A stretch of DNA of 64,000 nt from Calothrix sp. NIES-2100 (GTDB lineage Bacteria; Cyanobacteriota; Cyanobacteriia; Cyanobacteriales; Nostocaceae), in assembly GCA_002368195.1 (NCBI GenBank), contig AP018178.1, positions 5,273,286 through 5,337,285 of the forward strand. The letters are read 5' to 3'. The translations under genes and the position numbers were made by a program. Shown here piece by piece: positions 5,809 through 29,500 of this stretch. Below the pieces are notes generated by a model. It saw only the letters and a program-made list of their open reading frames with translations. It was not told the origin of the DNA and ran no database searches. Position 1 is the stretch's first letter. Every line of letters starts with the position of its first letter.

Positions 5809-6170
5809 AGTCCTGAGAACTTGGGCGTTAGGGACTTACAAAAAATAAATTACCCATATTCCGTAGTGCGAGCATCTTGCTCGATGAGTGAACACCACCT
5901 CGCGAGACGCTCGCACTACAAATTTATTGGGTATTTAAAAAAATACCCACGGGGGTAGGGGCACGGCATCGATAAAATATTGGTAATACCGAAAGTTGGA
6001 TAATTTATTTTTTGGAGTTCCCTTAAGCTATAAAAACTTGGGTGCTAGGCTGCTATTGCAGGGAATTTGCTATACTTTCGGAAAAATCTTAAATCCTCGG
6101 AATGTTTAATTTATCATAGATTCGTACATTTGTACTATTATTGGGTTTAGGAGGGCAATTAATAGAAGAT

Positions 6171-7043
6171 ATGGCTAGAGCAATCGAGCGAATTGATCGG
6201 GATATTGTATTGCTGAAAGAAGCGATAAAAGCGATCGCGGCAGAACTACAAAACGCTTATGCTATTTATTTCACTCTGTTAGGGCAAGCCGTTCGCCAGC
6301 AGTTGATTCTGGCAACCTATCACCTGTGTACCCAAGGTTATCCCGAAAAATTCCTGAGTTTGTCATTGAATCAACGGCAACATTTGCAACAAGCCATCCG
6401 CAAGTTGGGTAAACAGACAGCTGAACATTTGCTGACTATTATTAGTAGTGAGGAATCTCAGCATGAGGAAGATGAGGGGGATGAGGGGGATGAGGGGGAT
6501 GAGAGGGATGAGGGGGATAAGGGGGATGAGGGAGATGAGGAAGGTGAAAACAATTCTAAATCTCAAATTTCCAATTTAAAACTTACTGACTCTTCTAACC
6601 CAATGGAACTAGTAGCATGGCAACAGAGTGTAGAAAAGTTGACACAACATACACTCAAAAAACTGTCTCATGATGCTAATGCTGTGTTACAAAAAGTCAG
6701 TCTTTTACCCAAAAAGATCCCAGAACCGATTTTAGAAATAGCTGCGGCTGCATCAGAAGCATCTGCCGAAGTTATACCTGGGCCGCCTAACTTATTAAAC
6801 GTGGTCATTGAAATCGAAAATGAACAGGATGCGGAGGAACCTAGCCTGACAAAAGTTATGGCCATTAACCTCCGGCTAGGGGAAATTGAATTTGCTGATG
6901 CTAGACTCTCCTCGGCACGCAAACAGATTCGCAACACCCTACTTCAGTTAAATAAACTAGGACAAGATTATCAAAAAAAGCACCGAGAACGCTCAATTGC
7001 CGAAGCTGAAGCTGCTTGGCGTGCGATTTGGGATGATGATTAA
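6171..7043 (+). CDS. hypothetical protein with internal acidic (DEG)n repeat
   Basis: ORF track starts at TTG 6141; first ATG at 6171 (MARAIERID...); DEGDEGDEGDERDEGDKGDEGDEEGE encoded by a gatgaggggg tandem repeat. Confidence 0.5.
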   Translation: MARAIERIDRDIVLLKEAIKAIAAELQNAYAIYFTLLGQAVRQQLILATYHLCTQGYPEKFLSLSLNQRQHLQQAIRKLGKQTAEHLLTIISSEESQHEEDEGDEGDEGDERDEGDKGDEGDEEGENNSKSQISNLKLTDSSNPMELVAWQQSVEKLTQHTLKKLSHDANAVLQKVSLLPKKIPEPILEIAAAASEASAEVIPGPPNLLNVVIEIENEQDAEEPSLTKVMAINLRLGEIEFADARLSSARKQIRNTLLQLNKLGQDYQKKHRERSIAEAEAAWRAIWDDD

Positions 7044-7045
7044 CT

Positions 7046-7135
7046 AGTCATTTGTCATTTGTCATTTGTCATTTGTCATTTGTGAATAACTAGTGTCCAA
7101 TGCCCAATGCCCACTTGCCCCATGCCCAATGCCCC
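7046..7135. repeat. STRR heptamer arrays (GTCATTT then CCCAATG)
   Basis: gtcatttgtcatttgtcatttgtcatttgtg...ccaatgcccaatgcccacttgccccatgcccaatgcccc. Confidence 0.8.
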
Positions 7136-17204: not shown

Positions 17205-19256
17205 TCATCCCAAACCGAATAACTTAGAAATTAGCGGCAATAATTTATTTCCAGCTTCCACCAGTGAAGCCACAGCAGGTAAACCTGTAAATATTCCCTT
17301 TAACATGGTGATTGCAGTCTTTGCAGTCTTCTTACTTCCATTCTCTTGGGGATTTTTCGCGGCTTCTGCTAAAGTTTGCACCTGTTCTAAAGCCTCAGCT
17401 TTGTCCTCATCTGATAACTCTGATGATTGGGAAATTTCTTCTTGCAATTGCGTCAACAATTCTTTGATTCCGGGTTTCTCTGCTGACGGTGCATCGGGTA
17501 ACTGATTGAGCGCAACACTCACATTACCGCTAATCGTTCCCAGGTTGGCGACAGCGGCAGAACCACCGCCAGCAATACCGCTAACATTTGTACTACCTTG
17601 AATATTGATGCCGCTGATATCAGACACTTTGTTATCTCCTTGTATATAGTATTTCGACTGCTGAAGTGCAGTTGTCAGCATATTTTCTAAACTAAGAATA
17701 CGACTATCTTTTTCTATAAGTAGGGCTTGCTGACTTTGGGATAAAGCCTTGAGTTGATTATAGTCATCGAAATATTCGGCACTCAGTTGGGATTTATCAC
17801 TCCCTGGTGCGGTTTTAGCTCTAAGTAAGAATTTATCATCGCCGCGTTTCTCCATTGCCACAATTTCTAACTCGGCTTCTGGGTGATTTTCTGCCAGCTT
17901 TTTGAATGCAATTGCAATGGCGCGGGGGTCAACGTTTTGATTGTGGTAAAGGTCAAGGGTGTCAAAAATTGGCTTGATAAAGTCGGCAAAGTCGCCTTCT
18001 TGGAAGACTTCTTGTTGATTATCTGGTTTGCGGAGGGGGTCGGGGTTTTCTTTGGTGGGTAAGCGCATGAAGATATATTCACACCTCACTCCATGCAATT
18101 TAGTTTCACTGGTAATGCCCCAATCTTCAATGAATGCACCTGTGAGGGTTGCACCTGTTAAATCGGTTGCGTCTAGTTGGGTTTGCTTGAGTTTGGCTCT
18201 GGATAAATCCGCATCTTGCAAATTAGCTTCACTGAGGTCAGCGCTGATGAAGCTAGCATCGGCTAGGTTTGCTGATTGTAAGTTTATACCTCGCAGGATT
18301 TGACGGTCAAAGTTTTTGTCCTGTCCTTGTCCTGTAATTAGTAATTCGCGGATTTGTGGGTGTTGCAGGTAAGTTGAGCCAGGGCGAACGCGGTCAAGCA
18401 TTTTGGCTTGATGCCAACGGGTATTAGTCAGGATAGTTTTGTGGAAATCTGTACTTTTGAGTGTGGCTTTGGTGAAATCAGCCTGAGTTAAAGTAGTGCC
18501 ATGAAAACTTGTTCCGCCTGTGGCTGCAAAGTTGACAGCAATATTACGAACCAAGGAATATTTTTCGTCTCCTTTCATTGCTCGCCAAGCGATGTAGATA
18601 CTAAATAATGTTCCAGAAAAGGCGATGGCGAAGGCGTAGGCTCCAGCAAAGGCTCCGTTAACGGAGGCTGCGGAGGCTGCGTAGGCTCCGACGAAAGCTC
18701 CGGCAATAACTTCGGCTCCAGAGACTGCGAAAGCAACGGCGATGGCGTAGGCTCCAGCAAAGGCTCCGGCTCCGGAAACTGCGAAGGCGAAGGCAAAGAC
18801 GAAACCAAATATTCCAGTGAAGGCTCCGGAGGCTGTAAAGGCAAAGGCGAAGGCGACAGCGACAGCAACAGATCCTAAACTAGCTGCTATTCCTTGGCGA
18901 ATTGTAGTTAAGAAAAAGACAATCAATACGATTAAAGCAGTCCAGCCGACGATCCAATTCTCCGTACTATCTCCAAATATAAATGAGACTAAGTAACCGT
19001 TGATAGCCCATAAAAATACAGACACCCCTGACAATAACGAGGAAATAAGCAATAGAAAAATTGCCCAACGACGTTGCAGTCCCGCTTTAGCATGGCTAAA
19101 GTTTGCACCTGTTAAATTAGCATTGGTGAAATTTGCCCCTCGGATGTCGGCATAGCTAAAGTTTGCGCCTGCAAGGTCTTGTCCTTTGAAGTTGCGTCCT
19201 CGGAGATTTTGCCCAGAAAAGTCTAACGCCATGTTCCACTGCGCGAAGATGAGCAA
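17205..19256 (-). CDS. large pentapeptide-repeat membrane protein
   Basis: 683 aa; N-terminal and central pentapeptide repeats (NLRGRNFKGQDLAGANFSYADIRGANF...), Ala/Phe/Gly-rich low-complexity TM block (AFAFAFTASGAFTGIFGFVFAFAFAVSGAGAFAGAYA), coiled-coil C-terminal domain. Confidence 0.8.
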   Translation of the reverse strand: MLIFAQWNMALDFSGQNLRGRNFKGQDLAGANFSYADIRGANFTNANLTGANFSHAKAGLQRRWAIFLLLISSLLSGVSVFLWAINGYLVSFIFGDSTENWIVGWTALIVLIVFFLTTIRQGIAASLGSVAVAVAFAFAFTASGAFTGIFGFVFAFAFAVSGAGAFAGAYAIAVAFAVSGAEVIAGAFVGAYAASAASVNGAFAGAYAFAIAFSGTLFSIYIAWRAMKGDEKYSLVRNIAVNFAATGGTSFHGTTLTQADFTKATLKSTDFHKTILTNTRWHQAKMLDRVRPGSTYLQHPQIRELLITGQGQDKNFDRQILRGINLQSANLADASFISADLSEANLQDADLSRAKLKQTQLDATDLTGATLTGAFIEDWGITSETKLHGVRCEYIFMRLPTKENPDPLRKPDNQQEVFQEGDFADFIKPIFDTLDLYHNQNVDPRAIAIAFKKLAENHPEAELEIVAMEKRGDDKFLLRAKTAPGSDKSQLSAEYFDDYNQLKALSQSQQALLIEKDSRILSLENMLTTALQQSKYYIQGDNKVSDISGINIQGSTNVSGIAGGGSAAVANLGTISGNVSVALNQLPDAPSAEKPGIKELLTQLQEEISQSSELSDEDKAEALEQVQTLAEAAKNPQENGSKKTAKTAITMLKGIFTGLPAVASLVEAGNKLLPLISKLFGLG

Positions 19257-19326
19257 ATTTTACTACACGCTTCAGTCTGTATATTCAGCAATGGTGAGAT
19301 ATTCTTCATGATTCAGGCTCAAAGGT

Positions 19327-19592
19327 GCAGCGTTGAGGGTAAAAGCCGCAATTTCGAGGATAAAAGCCGCAACGTTGAGGATAAAAGCCGCAATTTCGAG
19401 GATAAAAGCCGCAACGTTGAGGATAAAAGCTGCAACGTTGAGGATAAAAGCCGCAATTTCGAGGATAAAAGCTGCAACGTTGAGGATAAAAGCTGCAACG
19501 TTGAGGGTAAAAGCTGCAACGTTGAGGGTAAAAGCTGCAACGTCGAGGATAAAAGCTGCAACGTTGAGGGTAAAAGCTGCAACGTTGAGATT
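19327..19592. repeat. 21-bp tandem repeat array (~12.5 copies; unit ataaaagccgcaacgttgagg with aatttcgagg variant)
   Basis: direct reading; lies immediately 5' of the minus-strand pentapeptide gene; encodes heptad repeats in both strands' ORFs. Confidence 0.9.
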
Positions 19593-19619
19593 TGAGGGAT
19601 TGCCAATTTCAAAATTACC

Positions 19620-19690
19620 CAAATTGTAGGGGCACGGCATCCAAAGACTTTCGGTAAAACAGACAATTGATCGGTGCCGTGCCCCTACCC
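19620..19690. repeat. GTAGGGGCACGGCA-family hairpin repeat
   Basis: gtaggggcacggcatcc...ggtgccgtgcccctaccc inverted repeat; related copies ~5947-6000, ~19795-19835, ~29705-29735. Confidence 0.5.
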
Positions 19691-20112
19691 GATGGATAAT
19701 TGATTTTTTGGTATTCCTTAAAGATGCAACATTGAGGTTTTAGGGACTACCAATTTCCAAAATACCCCCAAATGACAAGCGAAAATAAAGTGTGCAGGTA
19801 GGGGCATCGGCATTGCCGTGCCCTGACAATAATCGGGTACGGAAAAATATTTATATAATTGCGATCGCAAAAAGCCTAAACCCTGGCGATTGTTTCAGTT
19901 AGCCCTTGTGGGTAGTGCCCACCCTACTGAATTTGCCTAGCATATTATATCAGTAAATGTTTTGTCTGTGGCAATGTGGATATATAGCGGTTCTCGTGTG
20001 GATGCAATACACAATCGGGCACAGCAGTGCTGTGCCCCTACGAATGGTATGTATTCTATGCAATTGAGAACGCTATCGGCACAGCATAAACATTCATTTA
20101 CAGGAAAGACTA

Positions 20113-20277
20113 ATGGAACGCTCGAAAATAATTGCCATTCTTACAGGTGCAATTTCTGTACTTTTAGCGATCGCCTACCTGATCGTCGTCCAAATTCTCG
20201 ACTACCGCGATATGAAACCCGCCCCTATTAGCCAACTGAACCAACCGCCGGCAATTGTGGCTTCCGCTTGGAACTAA
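20113..20277 (+). CDS. possible small single-TM protein (54 aa) upstream of ndhF-like gene
   Basis: ATG ORF MERSKIIAILTGAISVLLAIAYLIVVQILDYRDMKPAPISQLNQPPAIVASAWN; below the ORF-track size cutoff; hydrophobic helix. Confidence 0.3.
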   Translation: MERSKIIAILTGAISVLLAIAYLIVVQILDYRDMKPAPISQLNQPPAIVASAWN

Positions 20278-20644
20278 AAATTCCCTTTTCGCATATACCT
20301 AAGGATATAAATATTTGAAGAGACGCAATCAATTGCGTCTTTTGTCGTTTATATCCATTGATAAAACAAATGATAACTATTGATTAATTGCAATGATTGT
20401 CTATAGATAGAAATTAATAGTTACGATTTGTTAATCAAATAAAGCCCTTATATAAGAATTAATTAGAGGAAGTATCGATGATTTATTTAATTAAAGTATT
20501 TCCTTTTTGTCATAGATAAAGGTAAGCTATTTTTAACAAAATTAAGCAAAAATAAAATCGAACTATTTGAGATGGCTGGGTTAGCTGCTATCAAAGCTTT
20601 TTGATGCATAACCCCAGAGTTTTGCTGCAAATTATAGAGGTAAG

Positions 20645-22507
20645 TTGATGGCTCAGTTTCTCTTAGAGACTGTTTGGCTAGTTCCGTGCTATGCCTTAAT
20701 AGGTGGGCTTTTAGCCGTTCCTTGGTCGCCAGGAGTAATTCGCCGCACTGGCCCAAGACCGGCGGGTTATGTCAATTTAGTAATGACATTTCTAGCGTTG
20801 ATGCACAGTGCGATCGCATTGTTCGCCACTTGGAATCAACCACCAGTAGAAGTATTTATACCTTGGCTTTCTACAGCTGGTTTAAATCTTACCATTGCTA
20901 TAGAAATTTCTTCCATAAGTGTGGGAGCGATAACTGTAATCACTGGCTTAAATTTCTTAGCCCAAATTTATGCCATTGGTTACATGGAAATGGATTGGGG
21001 TTGGGGACGCTTCTATTCTTTATTAGGACTGTTTGAAGCGGGATTGTGTGCCCTGGCTCTATGTAATAACCTGTTCTTTAGTTATGTAATTCTGGAAGTT
21101 CTGACTTTAGGAACCTATTTGCTAGTTGGCTTATGGTTCAGTCAGCCCTTGGTAGTTAGCGGTGCGAGAGACGCTTTCCTTACCAAACGGGTGGGTGACT
21201 TATTCCTGCTGATGGGTGTGTTGGGATTGTGGCCTTTAGCTGGTACTTGGAATTATACAGAATTAGCTGAATGGGCGACAACTGCCAATGTTGACCCCAC
21301 AGTTATCGCCCTGGTGGGTTTAGCTTTAATTGCGGGGCCAATGGGTAAATGTGCCCAATTCCCCCTGCATTTGTGGTTGGATGAAGCAATGGAAGGCCCA
21401 GTTCCCAGTACAATTTTGCGGAACTCGGTGGTAGTAGCCAGTGGTGCGTGGGTACTAATTAAACTGCAACCTGTATTAACTTTGTCTCCTTTTGTTTCCT
21501 CAGCAATTGTAGCAATTGGTGCAGTTACAGCCGTTGGTGCTTCCTTAATTGCGATCGCCCAAGTTGATATTAAACGCTGTCAATCCTATTCTGTCAGCGC
21601 TTACATGGGTTTGGTGTTTATCGCTGTGGGGACGAAACAAGACGACGCAGCACTGTTGTTAGTACTGACCCATGCTGTATCAGCGGCACTGTTGGTCATG
21701 AGTACTGGGGGAATTATCTGGAACAGCATTACCCAAAATGTTACCCAATTAGGTGGACTATGGTCACGTCGTCCAATATCTGCGATCGCCTTTATTATTG
21801 GAACTTTGGGATTAATTGGGTTTCCACCTCTAGGCGGCTTTTGGGCGCTGATGGAGTTAACGGATAGTCTTTGGGAAAATCAACCTTGGTTGGTTGGTGT
21901 GGTTGTAGCTGTCAACGTTTTAACCGCAGTCAGTTTAACCAGAGAATTTGGTCTAGTTTTTGCTGGTAAACCCAAACAGATGAGTGAGCGATCGCCTGAA
22001 GTACATTGGCCAATGGTATTGCCAATGGTGATTTTATTCGGTTTCGTCCTACATCTGCCCTTAGTGTTACAAAGTTTAGCATTATTACCAGATTGGGTAA
22101 CTTTGAATAAAGACGTTGCACTGTTGTTAATTTGGTCAACAATTTTTGGTTGTGGTATTAGTGGCGTAATTTATTTAGGTAATATTCCTAAACCAATTCG
22201 CTTACCTTGGCAACCTTTACAAGACTTGTTTGCCTACGATTTTTACACCCCAAAAATCTATCGGATGACGATTATTTTCAGCGTCGCCCAACTTTCCAAA
22301 TTGGCTGATATGGTTGACCGTTTCGTAGTAGATGGTATTGTGAATTTGGTGGGTTTATTCTCCCTATTAACTGGCGAAGGTCTGAAATATAGCACATCTG
22401 GACAAACCCAATTTTATGCTTTCACTGTGCTTTTAGGCGTTGGTGTATTGGGAATGTGGGTAACTTGGCCATTCTGGGGAGTACAGTTTTTAAATTTGAT
22501 GTTTTAG
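20645..22507 (+). CDS. ndhF4: NAD(P)H-quinone oxidoreductase subunit F homologue of CO2-uptake NDH-1 complex (NdhF3/F4 class)
   Basis: 620 aa polytopic antiporter-like subunit; length and neighbours (ndhD-like, cup gene, no cupS) fit the constitutive ndhF4-ndhD4-cupB arrangement; the 3-versus-4 assignment is an inference. Confidence 0.8.
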   Translation: MMAQFLLETVWLVPCYALIGGLLAVPWSPGVIRRTGPRPAGYVNLVMTFLALMHSAIALFATWNQPPVEVFIPWLSTAGLNLTIAIEISSISVGAITVITGLNFLAQIYAIGYMEMDWGWGRFYSLLGLFEAGLCALALCNNLFFSYVILEVLTLGTYLLVGLWFSQPLVVSGARDAFLTKRVGDLFLLMGVLGLWPLAGTWNYTELAEWATTANVDPTVIALVGLALIAGPMGKCAQFPLHLWLDEAMEGPVPSTILRNSVVVASGAWVLIKLQPVLTLSPFVSSAIVAIGAVTAVGASLIAIAQVDIKRCQSYSVSAYMGLVFIAVGTKQDDAALLLVLTHAVSAALLVMSTGGIIWNSITQNVTQLGGLWSRRPISAIAFIIGTLGLIGFPPLGGFWALMELTDSLWENQPWLVGVVVAVNVLTAVSLTREFGLVFAGKPKQMSERSPEVHWPMVLPMVILFGFVLHLPLVLQSLALLPDWVTLNKDVALLLIWSTIFGCGISGVIYLGNIPKPIRLPWQPLQDLFAYDFYTPKIYRMTIIFSVAQLSKLADMVDRFVVDGIVNLVGLFSLLTGEGLKYSTSGQTQFYAFTVLLGVGVLGMWVTWPFWGVQFLNLMF

Positions 22508-22673
22508 GGACTAGGGACTAGGGATTAGGGACTAGGGACTAGAAAACAGAGATTTTTTCGGGATTGACTGATTAAAAAATGCTGAATGTCGAATAAAAAT
22601 ACTAGCCCCTACCCCCTCCATAGACAATTTTTCAATTCCATGCATAACAATTTCCTGGTGTGAGCAAAAAACC

Positions 22674-23393
22674 ATGACAAAACAACATCGCCAAACAAAT
22701 GTTTCTCGCAGAAATTTACTCAAGCTAAGTGCAGGTGCAATTAGCGCAGGAGTATTAACAGCCGGATTAGGTTCAAATTTGGTTGCACCTGAAAAAGCCT
22801 CAGCACAAGACAAAAAAGATATCACTCCCGATGACGCACTAAAAGCATTATTGGATGGAAATGATCGGTTTGTGAAAGCCAAAAAACGCAACCCTAACCA
22901 AAGCCAATCACGTTTACGCGAAGTTGCAAAAGGTCAAAACCCCTTTGCTTCTATTCTAGGTTGTGCAGATTCACGAGTGCCTTCGGAGATAGTTTTTGAT
23001 CAGGGTTTAGGAGATTTATTTGTCTGCCGTGTAGCAGGTAATATTGCCACAAAAGAAGAAACCGGTAGCCTAGAATTTGGCAGCTTAGTATTAGGTTCTA
23101 AGCTAATTCTGGTACTAGGTCATGAAAGATGTGGGGCTGTAGATGCAACTATTAAGGGTGCATCAGTACCAGGAGAAATTGGTAGTTTATTAGAAGCAAT
23201 TAAACCTGGTGTAGAAAGATCTCAAGGACAAGCAGGCGATAAATTAGAAAATGCTTGTAAAGCTAACATTTTAGTACAAATTGAGAAATTGAAATCATCC
23301 CCAGTGCTATCTGAGTTAATCAAAGCTGATAAACTGAAAATAGTTGGTGGTTATTACGATTTGGATACTGGCAAAGTCAGCTTAGTTAGTTAG
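22674..23393 (+). CDS. beta-class carbonic anhydrase with twin-arginine signal (EcaB-like)
   Basis: RRNLLKLSAGAISAG Tat motif; beta-CA zinc ligands CADSRVP and GHERCGAV. Confidence 0.8.
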   Translation: MTKQHRQTNVSRRNLLKLSAGAISAGVLTAGLGSNLVAPEKASAQDKKDITPDDALKALLDGNDRFVKAKKRNPNQSQSRLREVAKGQNPFASILGCADSRVPSEIVFDQGLGDLFVCRVAGNIATKEETGSLEFGSLVLGSKLILVLGHERCGAVDATIKGASVPGEIGSLLEAIKPGVERSQGQAGDKLENACKANILVQIEKLKSSPVLSELIKADKLKIVGGYYDLDTGKVSLVS

Positions 23394-23553
23394 GTCATTG
23401 GTCATTGGTCATTGGTCATTGGTCATTGGTCAGAGGGAATAGCACAGAATTTTGAATTGTTTGTCTACCTTGAATTTTGACTCTTGACCTTTGACTCTTG
23501 ACCCTTGACTCCTTTGAAAATCTCTACTTTTCACTAAACTTACCCAAATTGCC

Positions 23554-25053
23554 ATGTTAAGTGTTTTGATTTGGCTCCCGATTTTAGCAGCAGCTATTAT
23601 AGCAGTAATACCTAAAAATCTGCCGACAAATACTGTACGGTTAAGTGCTTTATACTTTGCTGCGATAACTTTGCTTTGGAATATTTTTATTCTCTTCAAA
23701 TTTGATATCAGCAATCCGGGGATGCAGTTTCAAGAAAATATTCCTTGGAATGAAACTCTCGGTTTAAGTTATCAATTAGGAGTTGATGGACTTTCTATAC
23801 TCATGCTGGTGTTAAATAGCTTACTAACTTGGATTGCTATTTACAGCAGCAGTAAAGAGACTGAAAGACCTCGGCTTTTTTACTCGCTAATTTTATTAGT
23901 TAGTGGTGGGGTAGCAGGTGCGTTTCTAGCTGAGAATTTACTGCTATTCTTCTTGTTCTATGAATTAGAATTAATTCCCTTCTATCTTCTAATCTCTATT
24001 TGGGGAGGGGAAAAACGTGGTTATGCAGGTATCAAATTCCTGATTTACACAGCTGTTTCCGGGGCGCTAATTTTAGCAACTTTCTTGGGTACAGTTTGGC
24101 TGACTGGTTCTACCAGTTTCGCCTTTGATGCGATTTCTACCCAAACTCTATCCGCCGGAATGCAAATCATTCTTTTGGCAGGGATAGTATTAGGTTTTGG
24201 GATTAAAATTCCCTTGGTTCCCTTCCATACCTGGTTACCTGATGCTTATGTGGAAGCTTCTGCACCAATTGCGATTCTTTTGGGTGGTGTATTAGCAAAG
24301 CTGGGAACCTACGGACTGTTAAGATTTGGGATGGGGATGTTTCCCGAAGCGTGGAGTACCATTGCACCAACATTGGCGACTTGGGGCGCAATTAGTGCAA
24401 TTTATGGGGCAGTAGTTGCGATCGCCCAAAAAGATATCAAGCGCATGGTAGCATACAGTTCCATCGGTCACATGGGTTATATTTTGCTCGCTGGTGCTGC
24501 TAGTACTCCCCTGGCGTTGGTTGGTGCTGTCGCCCAAATGTTTAGCCACGGTTTGATTCTCGCTATCTTGTTCCATTTGGTGGGAGTCGTGGAAACCAAG
24601 GTTGGAACCCGGGAGTTAGATAAACTCAATGGTTTAATGAGTCCAATTCGGGGTTTACCTTTAATTAGCGCTTTGCTGGTATTAAGTGGAATGGCGAGTG
24701 CTGGTATTCCCGGTTTAACAGGATTCGTTGCGGAATTTATCTCTTTTCAGGGTAGTTTCTCAGCGTTTCCTATCCCGACGCTGTTGTGTGTTGTCGCTAG
24801 TGGTTTAACCGCAGTTTATTTTGTCATTCTTCTCAACCGCACCTGTTTTGGTAGACTTGATAATTTAGCCTACTATCCTAAAATTCAATGGTTTGAGAGA
24901 ACACCTGCGTTAATTTTGGCAGCTTTAATCATCTTTTTGGGAGTTCAACCGACTTGGTTAGTGCGTTGGAGTGAACCAACAACTACTAAGATGGTGGCTG
25001 CTATTCCGGCGTTGGAAAAAACCGTTAACTCTGAAGTTGCTTTGAAACCATAA
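23554..25053 (+). CDS. ndhD4: NAD(P)H-quinone oxidoreductase subunit D homologue of CO2-uptake NDH-1 complex (NdhD3/D4 class)
   Basis: 499 aa polytopic NuoM/NdhD family; the 3-versus-4 assignment inferred from context. Confidence 0.8.
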   Translation: MLSVLIWLPILAAAIIAVIPKNLPTNTVRLSALYFAAITLLWNIFILFKFDISNPGMQFQENIPWNETLGLSYQLGVDGLSILMLVLNSLLTWIAIYSSSKETERPRLFYSLILLVSGGVAGAFLAENLLLFFLFYELELIPFYLLISIWGGEKRGYAGIKFLIYTAVSGALILATFLGTVWLTGSTSFAFDAISTQTLSAGMQIILLAGIVLGFGIKIPLVPFHTWLPDAYVEASAPIAILLGGVLAKLGTYGLLRFGMGMFPEAWSTIAPTLATWGAISAIYGAVVAIAQKDIKRMVAYSSIGHMGYILLAGAASTPLALVGAVAQMFSHGLILAILFHLVGVVETKVGTRELDKLNGLMSPIRGLPLISALLVLSGMASAGIPGLTGFVAEFISFQGSFSAFPIPTLLCVVASGLTAVYFVILLNRTCFGRLDNLAYYPKIQWFERTPALILAALIIFLGVQPTWLVRWSEPTTTKMVAAIPALEKTVNSEVALKP

Positions 25054-25236
25054 ATTCTCTTACTCTCTGCGCCTCTGCGTCTCTGCGTGAGATTAATAAT
25101 TTAAACGAACAGCAAAGGCGCGTTCGGCGAAGCCGTTCCCGAAGGGTAGTACACAAAAGAAGAAAAAAATGAAGAGACTTTCTCAGATGATTTAGGATTG
25201 CTATCAGGAGTTACACAACAATAATCAGGAGGAAGG

Positions 25237-25863
25237 ATGAATTTAAAATTAATTCCCAGTGCTTTAGTACTATTTCGGTTTTTAATTTCGCCCTTCCTCC
25301 TTTGGGATGCTCTTGATGGTAAAACTAGTATTTGGTTCATTGTTGGTTTCGTCGCCGCTTTCCTCTCAGATATTTTTGATGGCATTATTGCTAGAAGACT
25401 TGGTGTGAGTACTGCCGAATTAAGACAAGCTGATAGTTGGGCTGATGTTTGCCTGTTTAGTTGCATATTTGTGAGTGCTTGGCTGGTATATCAAGATGTT
25501 TTAATTGCTTATCGAGTGCCTTTACTCACAGTAGTTTTTGCTCAGTTGATATGGTGGATAGTGAATTTAGTAAAATATGGTAAACCTGCTAGCTATCACA
25601 CCTATTCAGCTAAGTTTTGGGGCATCACTCTTTGTATTGCGATTATTTCTCTATTCGGCTTTAACTATGCTGGAATAACTTTATGGCTAACTTGTATTGC
25701 TGGTGTAGTCTACAGTATTGAAGAAATAGCCATGACAATCATTCTGCCAGTTTGGACACATGATGTTTTAAGCATTTTTCATGCCCTGAAAATTAGGGAA
25801 AATTTATTAATTCAAAATAACGTGATTGAATCACAACAATCACTAATGACAAATGACCAATGA
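25237..25863 (+). CDS. CDP-alcohol phosphatidyltransferase-like membrane protein (divergent motif)
   Basis: DALDG...DGIIARRLGVSTAELRQADSWAD approximates DG(x)2AR(x)8G(x)3D(x)3D with Gly replaced by Leu; 208 aa, multiple TM helices. Confidence 0.45.
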   Translation: MNLKLIPSALVLFRFLISPFLLWDALDGKTSIWFIVGFVAAFLSDIFDGIIARRLGVSTAELRQADSWADVCLFSCIFVSAWLVYQDVLIAYRVPLLTVVFAQLIWWIVNLVKYGKPASYHTYSAKFWGITLCIAIISLFGFNYAGITLWLTCIAGVVYSIEEIAMTIILPVWTHDVLSIFHALKIRENLLIQNNVIESQQSLMTNDQ

Positions 25864-25891
25864 CAATTGACAAATATAAAAGGATTTAAAA

Positions 25892-27211
25892 ATGACAACA
25901 ACTGTTAATACATCAACTAAATTACCCCCTTCCCGCCATGAATTTGCTGAAGTAATTCATCGCTTAGAAGCTGGCGGTTCAATGTTACCAGATACGCCAG
26001 AAAATTTAATGCAAATTATCGGCTTGTATAAAGCTTATGCAGTGCCGATGGATTTTTACTGGCGAGATTTACTTTATATTGCGGAACAGGAATTTTTAAA
26101 TCCCTTTCCCTTCTTTAAATACTTCTTACCTAAAGAATATTTAGACAGACATAATCATTATGCTGGTGATGATGCCGATTTACGCATTTGGCGGGGACAC
26201 GCAACAGCCCATCCTGAGTTATTAGCATTTATTGAAAAAGGTGAAACTGGGAAAATGCCCAGATTATTTCACCATTTATTCCACGATCGCATTAACATGG
26301 AGTTTGCTGAAGCTTGTATGCGCGCTATGCTTTGGCATCGGCAGATGTATGCGCCAGTAAACCAGTTTGACGCTTACCTCGATTCAGAAGAATATAAAGC
26401 TAACGCCGATAGGGCAATTAAAGCTTACTTCAAAGGTAACCCAGTGATGTTGACACTGCACAAGCTGTTCCCCGATATGTTTATCGAACAGTGTCGCCAG
26501 ATGTCTTACTACTCTAATTTAGGGTTATTCTGGGAAGTCATGGCACCCGTGTTCTTTGAAATGTCGGATATCTACGACGAAGGCGGGTTTAAAGGTGTCC
26601 CCGACGCGATGAATTTTATAGTGAACGGCATTTTTGCGATCGCAGGTCGTCCGATTTATCATCATGTATATATAGATGGGGAATGCTATGAAATCATCCC
26701 CAAATCTAAGGGTTTCACCTGGCTATACGAAGCCGCCTTACCTTATGTAGAAGCCGTTTTCTACCGCACCGCACCTTTTAGGGGGACAAAATCTTATAAT
26801 GCTCAAGCAGGTCAAGTACCTGATGACCAAAAAGATTTTCACTATGGTATTCTCTACGCTGATGTCTTCCCAGTTGGTACAGCCGGTATCCCCCCCACAC
26901 TGTTGATGCAAGATATGTTACACTTCTTACCCCAATATCTTGTTGATTATTACAAAAAACATTGTCGTGGCGAAGAAGATATGTTGATTCAGTTAGGAGT
27001 GAGTTTCCAACGTTCAATGTATAATGTAACTTCCGCAGTAATTCAAGCATTACGCACTGCACTTTTATATCCTTTAGATGACCAAAATCCCAAGCATTTA
27101 CAAGCAAACCGGGATTTCTTTGAAATGCAGCTAAATCGCTTTACTCGCGCTGATTACAATATGCGCGATTCAGCCCGTTTACGGAGTATTCAAAGCCAGG
27201 ATTACAGGTAG
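25892..27211 (+). CDS. cupB: CO2 hydration protein (ChpX/CupB-like)
   Basis: 439 aa; overall similarity to ChpX/ChpY family; no cupS neighbour. Confidence 0.8.
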   Translation: MTTTVNTSTKLPPSRHEFAEVIHRLEAGGSMLPDTPENLMQIIGLYKAYAVPMDFYWRDLLYIAEQEFLNPFPFFKYFLPKEYLDRHNHYAGDDADLRIWRGHATAHPELLAFIEKGETGKMPRLFHHLFHDRINMEFAEACMRAMLWHRQMYAPVNQFDAYLDSEEYKANADRAIKAYFKGNPVMLTLHKLFPDMFIEQCRQMSYYSNLGLFWEVMAPVFFEMSDIYDEGGFKGVPDAMNFIVNGIFAIAGRPIYHHVYIDGECYEIIPKSKGFTWLYEAALPYVEAVFYRTAPFRGTKSYNAQAGQVPDDQKDFHYGILYADVFPVGTAGIPPTLLMQDMLHFLPQYLVDYYKKHCRGEEDMLIQLGVSFQRSMYNVTSAVIQALRTALLYPLDDQNPKHLQANRDFFEMQLNRFTRADYNMRDSARLRSIQSQDYR

Positions 27212-27804: not shown

Positions 27805-28285
27805 GCGGAATCAACTTCAGGGTTCTCGGAATCAACTTCAGGGTTGACGTTTCCGTGTTTCGCGTACCCGGAATCAACTTCAGGGTTCCCGGAATTAACT
27901 TCAGGGTTGACGTTTCCGTGTTTCGCGTACCCGGAATCAACTTCAGGGTTCCCAGAATCAACTTCAGGGTTGACGTTTCCGTGTTTCGCGTACCCGGAAT
28001 TAACTTCAGGGTTGACGTTTCCGTGTTTCGCGTACCCAGAATCAACTTCAGGGTTCCCGGAATCAACTTCAGGGTTGACGTTTCCGTGTTTCGCGTACCC
28101 AGAATCAACTTCAGGGTTCCCAGAATCAACTTCAGGGTTGACGTTTGCGTGTTTCGCGTACCCAGAATCAACTTCAGGGTTCCCAGAATCAACTTCAGGG
28201 TTGACGTTTGCGTGTTTCGCGTACCCAGAATCAACTTCAGGGTTCCCGGAATCAACTTCAGGGTTGACGTTTCCGTATTTCGCGC
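27805..28285. repeat. complex tandem repeat (~63-bp composite unit: 2x cggaatcaacttcagggttcc + gacgtttccgtgtttcgcgtacc), ~8 copies
   Basis: direct reading; open in three + frames and one - frame; lies between two minus-strand genes. Confidence 0.9.
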
Positions 28286-28312
28286 AAGCTGTAGCTATTT
28301 CCGCATCCCGTT

Positions 28313-29500
28313 TTAAGCAACTTCTGATAATTTCCCATCAAGACGGCGAAATAGAAATAACCAAATAGGTAGTGAACTATTAATGGCAATCAGTCTGACT
28401 AAATGACCAGTTGTGACAACTTCAACATTATGATTCAATACCAGAGACACGAGAATCATCTCTGCTGAACCTCCGGGCGCTGTCACCAATAGACAAGTTA
28501 ACCAATCCCAAGAAGTTAATTGCATAGCTAGCATAGCAGCGATCGCACCTGCAATTAAAGTCATGACTACAGATATTACCGCATAGACTACAGTACGTTT
28601 TTTAAAGCTGGGTTTTTCTCCCCAATACTCACCGATGGTAATTCCTAACAGCATTTGCCCAACTATATTGATCAGTGAGGGTGGGGTAAAGTGAAGATTA
28701 TGGACAAAAGGTAGCAAATTTAGCACAGGATTAAATCCGATACCAATTAATAAAGCCCCAAAAAAATCCCCAGCGGGGATTTTAAATAATATCGACAGGT
28801 AAACTACAAATCCTGTTATCCCCAAGGCTAACAATAGTAATCCTAATTGAGAACTATCGAAATTCAACAAACTACTTTGTATGGTGATTGTTTGTGGATT
28901 CCAAGCATTACCAACTGTGGTTCTAGCAATAAAAGGAATCAGAAAAACTACAGATGTAACGCGCAAAGCCTGAACTAATGCTACTAGGGTGACATTTCTG
29001 CCATAATCAGCCGCAATAGATGCCATAATTCCCACACCACCGGGGACTGTAGCTAGCATTGCTGTTAACAAGTTAGTTTGACTGAGGCGGGAATAAATGT
29101 AGCCAATACCACTACCACAAAGTAACAGAAAAAATGTTAATAAAACAAAAATCGGAATCCCAGAAGCGACACTAGCTAAATCACTATGGGTAGTTGAGGC
29201 TCCAACTGTTAATCCTACCAATCCCATGCCCACCTTTCTGGCAGTTCGGTTAGGTTTGGGAGAATATTGATAGAAAATTCGACATCCCTGTAAAACTATA
29301 GTACCAGCCGCAATCCCCCCAAATATCCAAGCAATTCCGCCAATGTGGAATGTTGCTAAACTTAAACCTAAAGGTAATGCCAGTAGCATTTCTAAAACTA
29401 GGACAGCTAGTTGCTTGATAAATGGGTTTTCTGGAGCAACGGTAGGATTTCCAGCAGTGGATTCCTCTACAATGGGAATAAGATTAAAACTATGATTCAT
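28313..29500 (-). CDS. polytopic membrane protein (possibly AbrB-duplication/putative transporter family)
   Basis: 395 aa, ~10 TM helices with internal duplication; family assignment weak. Confidence 0.45.
   Translation of the reverse strand: MNHSFNLIPIVEESTAGNPTVAPENPFIKQLAVLVLEMLLALPLGLSLATFHIGGIAWIFGGIAAGTIVLQGCRIFYQYSPKPNRTARKVGMGLVGLTVGASTTHSDLASVASGIPIFVLLTFFLLLCGSGIGYIYSRLSQTNLLTAMLATVPGGVGIMASIAADYGRNVTLVALVQALRVTSVVFLIPFIARTTVGNAWNPQTITIQSSLLNFDSSQLGLLLLALGITGFVVYLSILFKIPAGDFFGALLIGIGFNPVLNLLPFVHNLHFTPPSLINIVGQMLLGITIGEYWGEKPSFKKRTVVYAVISVVMTLIAGAIAAMLAMQLTSWDWLTCLLVTAPGGSAEMILVSLVLNHNVEVVTTGHLVRLIAINSSLPIWLFLFRRLDGKLSEVA

Follow-up and report, generated by a model that had tools for sequence, protein, structure and literature searches.

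A 21-bp tandem repeat array upstream of a pentapeptide-repeat gene of Calothrix sp. NIES-2100 belongs to a dispersed Nostocaceae family and probably acts, if at all, as DNA

The locus lies within a 64-kb stretch of Calothrix sp. NIES-2100 DNA, which was analysed as a whole and is referred to below as the window. A gene for a pentapeptide-repeat membrane protein is followed, on its upstream side, by a conserved non-coding block, a tandem array of 21-bp units, an inserted segment and one solitary unit. Beyond the array stand a conserved 54-aa membrane ORF and then a CO2-uptake cluster made up of an ndhF3-like gene, a beta-carbonic anhydrase gene, an ndhD3-like gene and ChpY/CupA. The features at the locus, in window coordinates, are as follows.

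17205-19232, minus strand: pentapeptide-repeat membrane protein gene, 675 aa from the conserved ATG
19233-19320, no strand: conserved non-coding block between array and ATG, delimited by alignments of 10 syntenic loci
19321-19593, no strand: tandem array of 13 units of 21 bp, with degenerate first and last units and three units of the ATTTCG variant
19594-19719, no strand: inserted or duplicated segment, lineage-specific, which repeats the distal junction and carries a hairpin
19720-19740, no strand: solo 14th unit, AAAGATGCAACATTGAGGTTT, scoring 21.1 bits, the sole weight-matrix hit outside the array in the 64 kb

The start of the pentapeptide gene determines how far away the array lies. The first-pass annotation had taken the 683-aa ORF at 17205-19256 (minus strand) as the gene and had placed the array 70 nt from its start codon. 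This ORF is 100% identical to an NCBI protein of Calothrix sp. NIES-2100 that is annotated with 675 aa. The longer form starts at a TTG at 19256, and its N-terminal extension is not conserved. Given that the extension contains an in-frame stop in C. brevissima NIES-22 and that every pentapeptide orthologue starts M[AG]LDFSGQ, i.e. M[AG]LDFSGQNLRGRNF, the ATG at 19232 is the real start, and the array is 88 nt upstream of it. The stop codons and the conserved ATG also exclude the suggestion that the array encodes an N-terminal extension of the pentapeptide protein.

The block between the array and the ATG (19233-19320) is well conserved among the syntenic loci, with an identity to the window of 0.68-0.94 in the relatives. 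It contains GTGAGCAAATTTTACTA, identical at 10/10 syntenic loci, which is followed by a variable stretch of ~9-12 nt and then by a GTA[T/A]ATT...AAT.GT.AG block. In every pair with measured 4-fold sites, the identity of this flank exceeded the 4-fold-site identity of the adjacent gene: 0.73 vs 0.49 (L037), 0.89 vs 0.65 (L002) and 0.94 vs 0.78-0.80 (L033 and L035). Two candidate -10 boxes were recognised by inspection, TAAAAT on the minus strand (19262..19257) and TATATT on the plus strand (19280-19285). A consensus promoter and terminator scan gave no match in the conserved flank, and NtcA-, CRP-, HLR1- and SigF-type motifs, sought by eye in the flank and the unit, gave no convincing match. 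The conservation and the candidate -10 boxes suggest that 19233-19320 is probably the core promoter region. If the minus-strand -10 box is used, the array would lie at roughly -70 to -340, outside the mRNA.

The 21-bp tandem array reported in the first-pass annotation was confirmed by Tandem Repeats Finder, a unit pattern, shuffled sequences and a weight matrix. The array consists of 13 units arranged head to tail in exact 21-bp register (19321-19593). Tandem Repeats Finder delimited it at 19321-19589, with a period of 21, 12.8 copies, 87% matches and a score of 391, among the four top-scoring of the 69 rows returned for the 64-kb window. Many of the other rows are 7-mers. All 13 matches of the degenerate unit AAAGCYGCAACGTTGAGGRTA in the window fell within 19321-19593, and 100 dinucleotide-preserving shuffles yielded no match (chance expectation, 0). 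With a weight matrix trained without the window, on related arrays from other organisms only, 13/13 window units scored 22.6-33 bits (maximum, 35.7) and the shuffles gave no hits. The AATTTCGAGG (ATTTCG) variant, which had been described as alternating with the main unit, is confined to three units (19342, 19384 and 19447) and does not strictly alternate.

The array is a member of a dispersed 21-bp Nostocaceae repeat family, defined herein, with the consensus AAAGGnGCAACkTyGAGGnTA. Scans of genome and metagenome collections recovered arrays of the family unit at 12 further loci. A two-unit pattern applied to species-representative genomes yielded those of Nostoc sp. DedQUE12a, Nostoc sp. T09 and Calothrix brevissima NIES-22, and a degenerate pattern applied to metagenome contigs yielded nine more. 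Arrays of the family were found at the following other locations.

L001: downstream of a different pentapeptide gene and upstream of an HTH gene
L012 and L022: between a convergent COR-TIR gene and a Uma2 gene, with L017 as a related site
L006 and L013: upstream of an LRR protein gene
L016: between two ODP-type (flavodiiron-like) genes
L026: between nrtC-like and nrtD-like ABC nitrate transporter genes of one operon
L032: array in Desmonostoc muscorum

The non-syntenic arrays occupy divergent, co-directional, convergent and intra-operon settings, with no orientation rule. Since arrays occur at unrelated loci, they represent a dispersed family rather than a device particular to the pentapeptide gene. 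Those at L012 and L017 (convergent) and at L026 (operon) cannot be promoter elements, and the family overall may therefore have no host function. A plasmid BLAST search and a pattern scan of viral contigs returned no match to the repeat. The literature searched by topic and by unit sequence contained no description of it, which is weak evidence for novelty because the coverage was partial.

The unit itself shows a clear division into fixed and free positions. Among 74 distinct units from 12 loci, positions 1-4 (AAAG), 8-10 (CAA), 13 (T), 15-18 (GAGG) and 20 (T) were 89-100% invariant, and positions 6, 12, 14 and 19 were split nearly evenly. The units are mosaic in make-up and go back to a handful of ancestral types, GCAACGTTG, GCAAyTTCG and CTCATCGTTG. 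Because the invariant/free pattern partly reflects the shuffling of these few types, it can be taken only as suggestive of constraint.

Family-unit arrays also stand upstream of the orthologous pentapeptide gene in at least nine other Nostocaceae, with about 6-17 units each. Six syntenic arrays were added from the DNA around pentapeptide orthologues, namely those of N. carneum NIES-2107, Tolypothrix PCC 7910, Calothrix NIES-2098, one Nostoc, C. membranacea FACHB-236 and a metagenomic relative. The arrays at the syntenic locus are listed below.

Window, Calothrix sp. NIES-2100: 13 units, plus one displaced at 19720-19740
L040, metagenomic relative: 11 units
L002, Nostoc sp. T09: 10 units
L003, C. 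brevissima NIES-22: 12-14 units
L033, N. carneum NIES-2107: 12-13 units
L035, Tolypothrix PCC 7910: 13-15 units
L037, Nostoc, 8.3-Mb contig: 13 units, with a diverged unit, AAAGACTCGTTAACGGAGTTC
L034, Calothrix NIES-2098: 7 x 42 bp, diverged yet 21-phased
L038, C. membranacea FACHB-236: 6-7 units
L011, metagenome contig: at least 9 units

At least 10 syntenic loci, across Calothrix, Nostoc and Tolypothrix, keep the array. It remains linked to the pentapeptide gene despite different far-side neighbours at L034, L037 and L011, it is absent only in Anabaenopsis circularis NIES-21, whose upstream neighbour differs, and none of the syntenic loci with a conserved flank has lost it. The order of the proximal units is kept between species; in five genomes, AAAGCCGCAATTTCGAGGATA occupies the first or second place. 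Homogenisation has taken different courses in the distal halves, which are rich in GCAACGTTG in the window and L040 and rich in CTCATCGTTG in NIES-22 and PCC 7910. Most relatives differ at only 19-35% of 4-fold sites (L037 has an identity of 0.49), and this modest divergence means that common ancestry accounts for part of the cross-species similarity.

The solo unit at 19720-19740 originally closed the array on its distal side and has since been shifted by 147 bp (7 x 21), as judged from the alignment of its junction with the distal junctions of NIES-2107 and L040. The displacement was by a 147-bp duplication or insertion carrying the GTAGGGGCACGGCA hairpin, whose arms within 19594-19719 are GTAGGGGCACGGCA (19626-19639) and TGCCGTGCCCCTAC (19675-19688). 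The hairpin-bearing insertion at 19594-19719 is not present in the relatives aligned. It supplies the ATG of a 122-aa minus-strand ORF, one of the three reading frames through the array that are listed here.

19272-19640, minus strand: 122-aa ORF with NVAAFIL heptads, which become NDEPFIL in relatives; judged a by-product of the repeat
19308-19595, plus strand: 95-aa ATG-initiated ORF beginning MIQAQ, with KSRNVED heptads; judged not conserved
19333-19629, plus strand: 98-aa TTG-initiated ORF with RIKAATL heptads; judged a by-product

Five of the six frames of the array are stop-free. On the plus strand, the +0 frame (RIKAATL, from unit position 1) and the +2 frame (SCNVEDK, from unit position 3) are open and the position-2 frame is closed; on the minus strand, 3/3 frames are open, one of them stopping 1 nt before the array end. 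The count is accordingly two open frames on the plus strand and three on the minus strand, not two on each as stated earlier. The RIKAATL (plus) and NVAAFIL (minus) frames are open in essentially every array. A simulation based on position-specific nucleotide frequencies predicted 2.0 (RIKAATL) and 1.1 (NVAAFIL) stops per 127 units, and one was observed in each frame. Given that the observed stops are close to the expectation from composition, the nucleotide pattern accounts for their number without further selection against stops. The mean information by codon position was 1.40, 1.44 and 1.31 bits, indicating neither codon periodicity nor third-position relaxation, and the would-be third positions 3, 9 and 18 of the RIKAATL frame are among the most invariant. 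In L006 and L013, the RIKAATL frame has no start codon.

The MIQAQ ORF is intact in five syntenic arrays and dead in five (L002, L011, L033, L034 and L040). Its lesions are a stop at codon 5 (T09 and L040), ACG or ATC in place of ATG (NIES-2107 and L040), absence of a start together with a stop (L011) and deletion of the flank (NIES-2098, L034). The heptad character of this frame varies between genomes (KSRNVED, RLIVEVQ and RLVNGVQ), and in L012 and L017 TAA stops arise from a T at unit position 21. For array ORFs, gene callers pick different frames, and even different strands, across genomes; the MIQAQ frame is annotated as a gene in L035 (PCC 7910), L037 (Nostoc) and L038 (FACHB-236). Because callers annotate heptad ORFs of 60-120 aa in differing frames, such calls should be treated as spurious. 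A collection of 15 billion proteins contained none of four window ORFs. The homologue search with the RIKAATL frame returned one weak hit only, itself an array ORF in Desmonostoc, and that with the MIQAQ-type ORF of PCC 7910 returned none. Pfam gave sub-threshold coiled-coil noise for the array ORFs and nothing above the curated cut-off.

On this evidence, coding was rejected: the array is read as non-coding, and its open frames as side-effects of the repeat. A heptad-repeat (coiled-coil) protein gene was discarded for want of a conserved ORF, a codon pattern or homologues. The 122-aa minus-strand ORF of the first-pass annotation does exist at 19272-19640, but its status as a gene does not hold and it is judged a by-product of the repeat. 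The proposed upstream small protein fares no better, with frames that are open by composition, an ORF that is dead in half of the relatives, inconsistent gene calls, and neither homologues nor a Pfam match.

The shape of the DNA was considered next to its sequence. The summed dinucleotide twist is 720 degrees per window unit. Since 21 bp correspond to two helical turns, the (T)AAAA tract of each unit lies on the same face, and the A-tracts of the array are in phase. Curvature was calculated with the Bolshoy-Trifonov wedge model, with wedge parameters entered by hand, in 273-bp windows over the 64 kb. In this model, the array has an end-to-end/contour ratio of 0.15 (an arc of ~300 degrees) vs a median of 0.90 for all 273-bp windows, and it overlaps each of the five with the strongest curvature. 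A model with AA wedges only gave 0.14-0.45 across 10.3-10.7 bp per turn vs 0.91 for shuffles. By these models, no other DNA in the 64 kb comes close to the array in curvature. The predicted curvature extends to all other arrays, the sequence-diverged L034 (NIES-2098) and L037 included; for six further syntenic arrays, the predicted ratios were 0.18-0.44 vs locus medians of 0.92-0.96. Arrays of permuted units averaged 0.65-0.84, and the real unit fell in the lowest 0-6.5% for 8/10 arrays, with L013 and L016 outside the extreme tail; given that permuted-unit arrays are also somewhat curved, part of the curvature signal is inherent to the 21-bp period. The window unit is predicted by the model to be close to the most curving arrangement of its own bases. 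In Microcystis K-81, curved DNA upstream of the rpoD1 and psbA2 promoters stimulates transcription (PMC2758279).

The reading that we favour, with a probability of roughly 0.55, is that the array is a non-coding, locus-stable, helically phased member of a dispersed Nostocaceae family, which acts, if at all, as DNA. In this reading, the position of the promoter and any effect on transcription are what we infer, and the curvature is that of the model. The array would sit beyond the ~88-bp conserved block that most likely holds the core promoter or promoters. Each unit would set its A-tract and the conserved GAGG, AAAG and CAA blocks on one face of the helix. Some 270 bp adjoining the promoter would thereby be strongly curved or, equivalently, would offer a phased platform on which proteins could bind cooperatively. 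Whole units would be gained or lost by replication slippage or unequal exchange, changing the length of the arc but not the phase or the frame.

Several other readings were weighed against this one. It is exceedingly unlikely that the locus encodes a small heptad-repeat protein, either through the MIQAQ ORF at 19308-19595 (plus strand), with GGTGAG before it, or through the 122-aa minus-strand ORF. The ATG and the upstream GGTGAG are kept in five syntenic arrays, the MIQAQ frame carries a gene call in PCC 7910, FACHB-236 and one Nostoc, and the L037 frame reads, by eye, as a canonical a/d coiled coil with a hydrophobic tail; however, the ORF is dead at 5/10 syntenic loci, the residue character is not conserved, TAA stops occur in L012 and L017, codon periodicity is absent, and the searches returned no homologues, no entry in the 15-billion-protein collection and no Pfam match above the cut-off. 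We also regard a repetitive non-coding RNA as unlikely. Such an RNA would start near 19292 from a plus-strand promoter in the flank (TTTTAC, 16 nt, TATATT), extend over ~300-400 nt and 13 units, and sequester a protein, a small RNA or 30S subunits in the manner of a sponge or decoy. The two best-conserved blocks of the flank are indeed spaced like a plus-strand -35/-10 pair, with TATATT/TAAATT at 10/10 loci, no parts of the unit are more invariant than GAGG and AAAG, and the GAGG and AAAGG of each unit would provide Shine-Dalgarno-like purine motifs, 26 across the transcript. RNA folding compared with shuffles gave z = -4.4 for the plus strand and an unremarkable z = -1.9 for the minus strand. 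The plus-strand signal, however, has two sources: the CAACGTTG palindrome, which the units most frequent at other loci (CAACTTCG and CATCGTTG) do not contain, and the inserted hairpin, which is absent from the aligned relatives. Furthermore, the consensus promoter scan found no match in the flank, and the non-syntenic arrays have no common upstream promoter and lie in both orientations to their flanking genes. Rfam gave no gathering-score hit in the 64 kb and, at E <= 10, chance-level matches only in 19100-20700 (E >= 0.6); with no covariance-model match, a known structured RNA family (Rfam, cyanobacterial small RNAs) was set aside.

It is very unlikely that the array is a phase-variable contingency element, one that would turn the pentapeptide gene on and off, or tune its expression, between cells or strains as units are gained or lost. 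The array is promoter-proximal, unit numbers at the syntenic locus differ between species, and two assemblies with an identical protein, L038 (FACHB-236, 6-7 units) and L039 (a Logan assembly, 2-3 units), differ by 84 bp, i.e. four units. However, two sister contigs of the same project end inside the array after units matching the longer version, so that the short L039 version most likely arose by collapse of the de Bruijn graph; at the array, assemblies from short reads are interrupted or collapsed, which makes comparison of copy number between assemblies unreliable. The array is outside the pentapeptide ORF, distal to both candidate -10 boxes and 88 bp from the ATG; a contingency locus was rejected because the array is neither within that ORF nor between -35 and -10. 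A change by whole units keeps both the reading frame and the helical phase, since 21 bp are seven codons and two turns, and related arrays sit where promoters do not exist. What stands of the earlier proposal of a copy-number-variable promoter or 5'-UTR element is its weakened form, an array linked to the upstream control region with a unit number that varies between species; the phase variation that it invoked is unsupported. The main rival to the best reading, that of architectural DNA, is a neutral or selfish minisatellite, generated by slippage and unequal exchange, retained through linkage and functionless at the locus, in a family that spreads or re-arises without host benefit. We consider it a real possibility, though one that falls well short of even odds. 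It would agree with the occurrence of arrays in every intergenic context without an orientation rule, with a genome full of other tandem repeats (69 Tandem Repeats Finder rows, many of them 7-mers), with unit numbers that range from about 6 to 15 at the syntenic locus and with the modest neutral divergence to most relatives, and a mosaic of few ancestral unit types could explain the conserved and variable positions without selection. Against it stand the retention of the array at 10 or more syntenic loci in three genera, including L037 with its 4-fold identity of 0.49, the near-invariant core common to arrays at unrelated loci, and the lack of any flank-conserving syntenic locus without the array.

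The preferred reading, a phased non-coding array acting as DNA, could be carried further, in a form that we hold to be speculative and rather improbable. The arrays would then constitute a hitherto undescribed, sequence-specific class of architectural DNA in heterocystous cyanobacteria, with a ~270-bp arc near a full turn, and a putative DNA-binding or nucleoid protein would recognise the invariant GAGGnTnAAAG/CAA blocks. If this were true, the arrays would set local topology, activate or insulate neighbouring promoters and, elsewhere, separate transcription units; the promoters affected here would be that of the pentapeptide gene and possibly that of the divergent CO2-uptake ndhF3 cluster.

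To our knowledge, Nostocales genomes are crowded with tandem repeats whose roles have remained unknown since their first description. The present array gives a testable handle on this old question about cyanobacterial repeats, and its conserved position on the promoter side together with the clear invariant/free pattern of its unit makes functional testing straightforward; a specialist would find little surprise in it.

Among known systems, the contingency loci of Haemophilus and Neisseria are, like the array, tandem repeats close to the start of a gene in which slippage can alter the number of copies, but they have units of 1-7 nt, located in ORFs or between promoter elements, and act by shifting frame or spacing. 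Tandem direct repeats likewise make up the NsiR1 array, which occupies the intergenic stretch ahead of hetF in Nostocales. A single NsiR1 repeat greatly exceeds 21 bp and forms an entire small-RNA gene, promoter and terminator included; an array of this type was rejected, as the present unit is too short and had no Rfam match. Iterons and parC-type centromere repeats are also phased direct repeats (10-22 bp, binding protein cooperatively), located on plasmids beside rep or par genes. The present array is chromosomal, with no rep or par neighbour, its relatives are dispersed and the repeat has no plasmid or viral match, and this assignment was dismissed. A CRISPR or LTRR array was excluded on the basis that the units abut at exact 21-bp spacing, without spacers.

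The CIT/RIB elements of K-81 psbA2 and the curvature at rpoD1 P2 share with the array helically phased A-tracts upstream of a promoter (PMC2758279). The K-81 elements are short, non-repetitive clusters with about one A-tract per turn, whereas the array is a 13-unit repeat with one A-tract per two turns, its curvature is modelled, and its family also occurs away from promoters. The closest known kind is that of the STRR heptamer arrays of heterocystous cyanobacteria, which are likewise intergenic, head-to-tail and dispersed in Nostocales, and the unit length of 21 equals 3 x 7. Similarity among the three heptamers of the unit is weak, with at most 3/7 bases in common, and a triplicated heptamer is an improbable origin of the 21-mer. 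Unlike STRR arrays, the array has a 21-bp unit, for which Tandem Repeats Finder gives a period of 21 only and no 7-bp period, it has defined invariant and free positions, and it is kept at one orthologous locus across genera.

The tandem repetition at the orthologous position, upstream of the gene for the pentapeptide-repeat membrane protein, is found in diverged form in two relatives. In Calothrix sp. NIES-2098 (L034, 2548-2841), the array consists of seven copies of a 42-bp unit with 92% matches, and in the 8.3-Mb Nostoc contig (L037, 2646-2919) it comprises 13 units in which AAAGACTCGTTAACGGAGTTC alternates with AAAGGCTCGTTCACGAGTATA. Both the 21-bp phase and the curvature predicted by the wedge model are retained in these two arrays. 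Copy numbers of the 21-bp repeat taken from assemblies are unreliable, since the short-read contigs of the Logan assemblies SRR31831159-63 (L039/L042, L043 and L044) either stop within the array or, most likely, collapse approximately seven units to approximately three.

An array of the same family was also found inside an operon. A nitrate-transporter-like operon in the metagenome contig JAESFM010000102.1 contains two co-directional ABC ATPase genes, one nrtC-like with an NMT1 domain and the other nrtD-like, and 9-11 near-identical units (AAAGGCTCATCGTTGAGGATA) fill the space between them (L026, 5732-5962 in oriented coordinates). At this locus the repeat must be transcribed as part of the operon.

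The following features of the window surround the array at 19321-19593:

19626-19639 and 19675-19688, arms of a hairpin with a 14-bp stem, GTAGGGGCACGGCA...TGCCGTGCCCCTAC
20113-20277, +, 54-aa single-pass membrane ORF, MERSKIIAILTGAISVLLAIAYLIVVQILDYRDMKPAPISQLNQPP...
20645-27211, CO2-uptake NDH-1 cluster, including a beta-carbonic anhydrase gene
22674-23393, beta-carbonic anhydrase gene (Pro_CA)
25892-27211, +, ChpY/CupA gene
28313-29500, -, AbrB-family membrane protein gene

The distal end of the array carries a lineage-specific duplication or insertion of 147 bp (7 x 21; window 19594-19719), which is absent from the equivalent place in N. carneum NIES-2107 and in the metagenomic relative L040. 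The 14-mer of its hairpin recurs, identically or nearly so, at 5955, 19814 and 20028, which suggests that the hairpin belongs to a small dispersed element.

The 54-aa ORF, for which no Pfam match was found, is conserved in Nostoc T09 and C. brevissima, where it precedes the ndhF3-like gene. In NIES-2107, PCC 7910 and FACHB-236, gene calls at the corresponding site give an ORF of 61-91 aa. The cluster runs from the ndhF3-like gene through the inserted beta-carbonic anhydrase gene, whose product has a twin-arginine-like N-terminus (SRRNLLKLSAGA), to the ndhD3-like gene and then ChpY/CupA.

Another tandem array in 21-bp phase (27806-28288; 23 units, 483 bp) lies between the convergent ChpY/CupA and AbrB-family genes. 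Its units are of two kinds, C[GA]GAATCAACTTCAGGGTT.. and CGTTTCCGTGTTTCGCGTACC, which follow the order AAB or AB, and the motif CAACTTC..GG is common to it and to some units of the dispersed family, such as those between two flavodiiron-like genes in L016. No curvature is predicted for this array.

At the borders of several non-syntenic family arrays (L012, 5620-6040; L017, 1521-1900; L013, 3872-3934; oriented coordinates), a hairpin-like element of ~60 nt, GTCGAGCGATGTCTACGACGGGCTACGCCTACGCTCTTTTAGCTCGAC, recurs. It likewise holds the 21-bp register, with a period of 84 in L012, and may be a companion repeat of the 21-bp arrays. The window also contains many tandem arrays of 7-mers and 9-mers of the short tandemly repeated repetitive (STRR) type, for example at 7047-7083, 23393-23432, 6463-6540 and 1831-1934, with the units GTCATTT, GGTCATT, ATGAGGGGG, TCTCCCTCA and CCCTAGC; such arrays are typical of heterocystous cyanobacteria.
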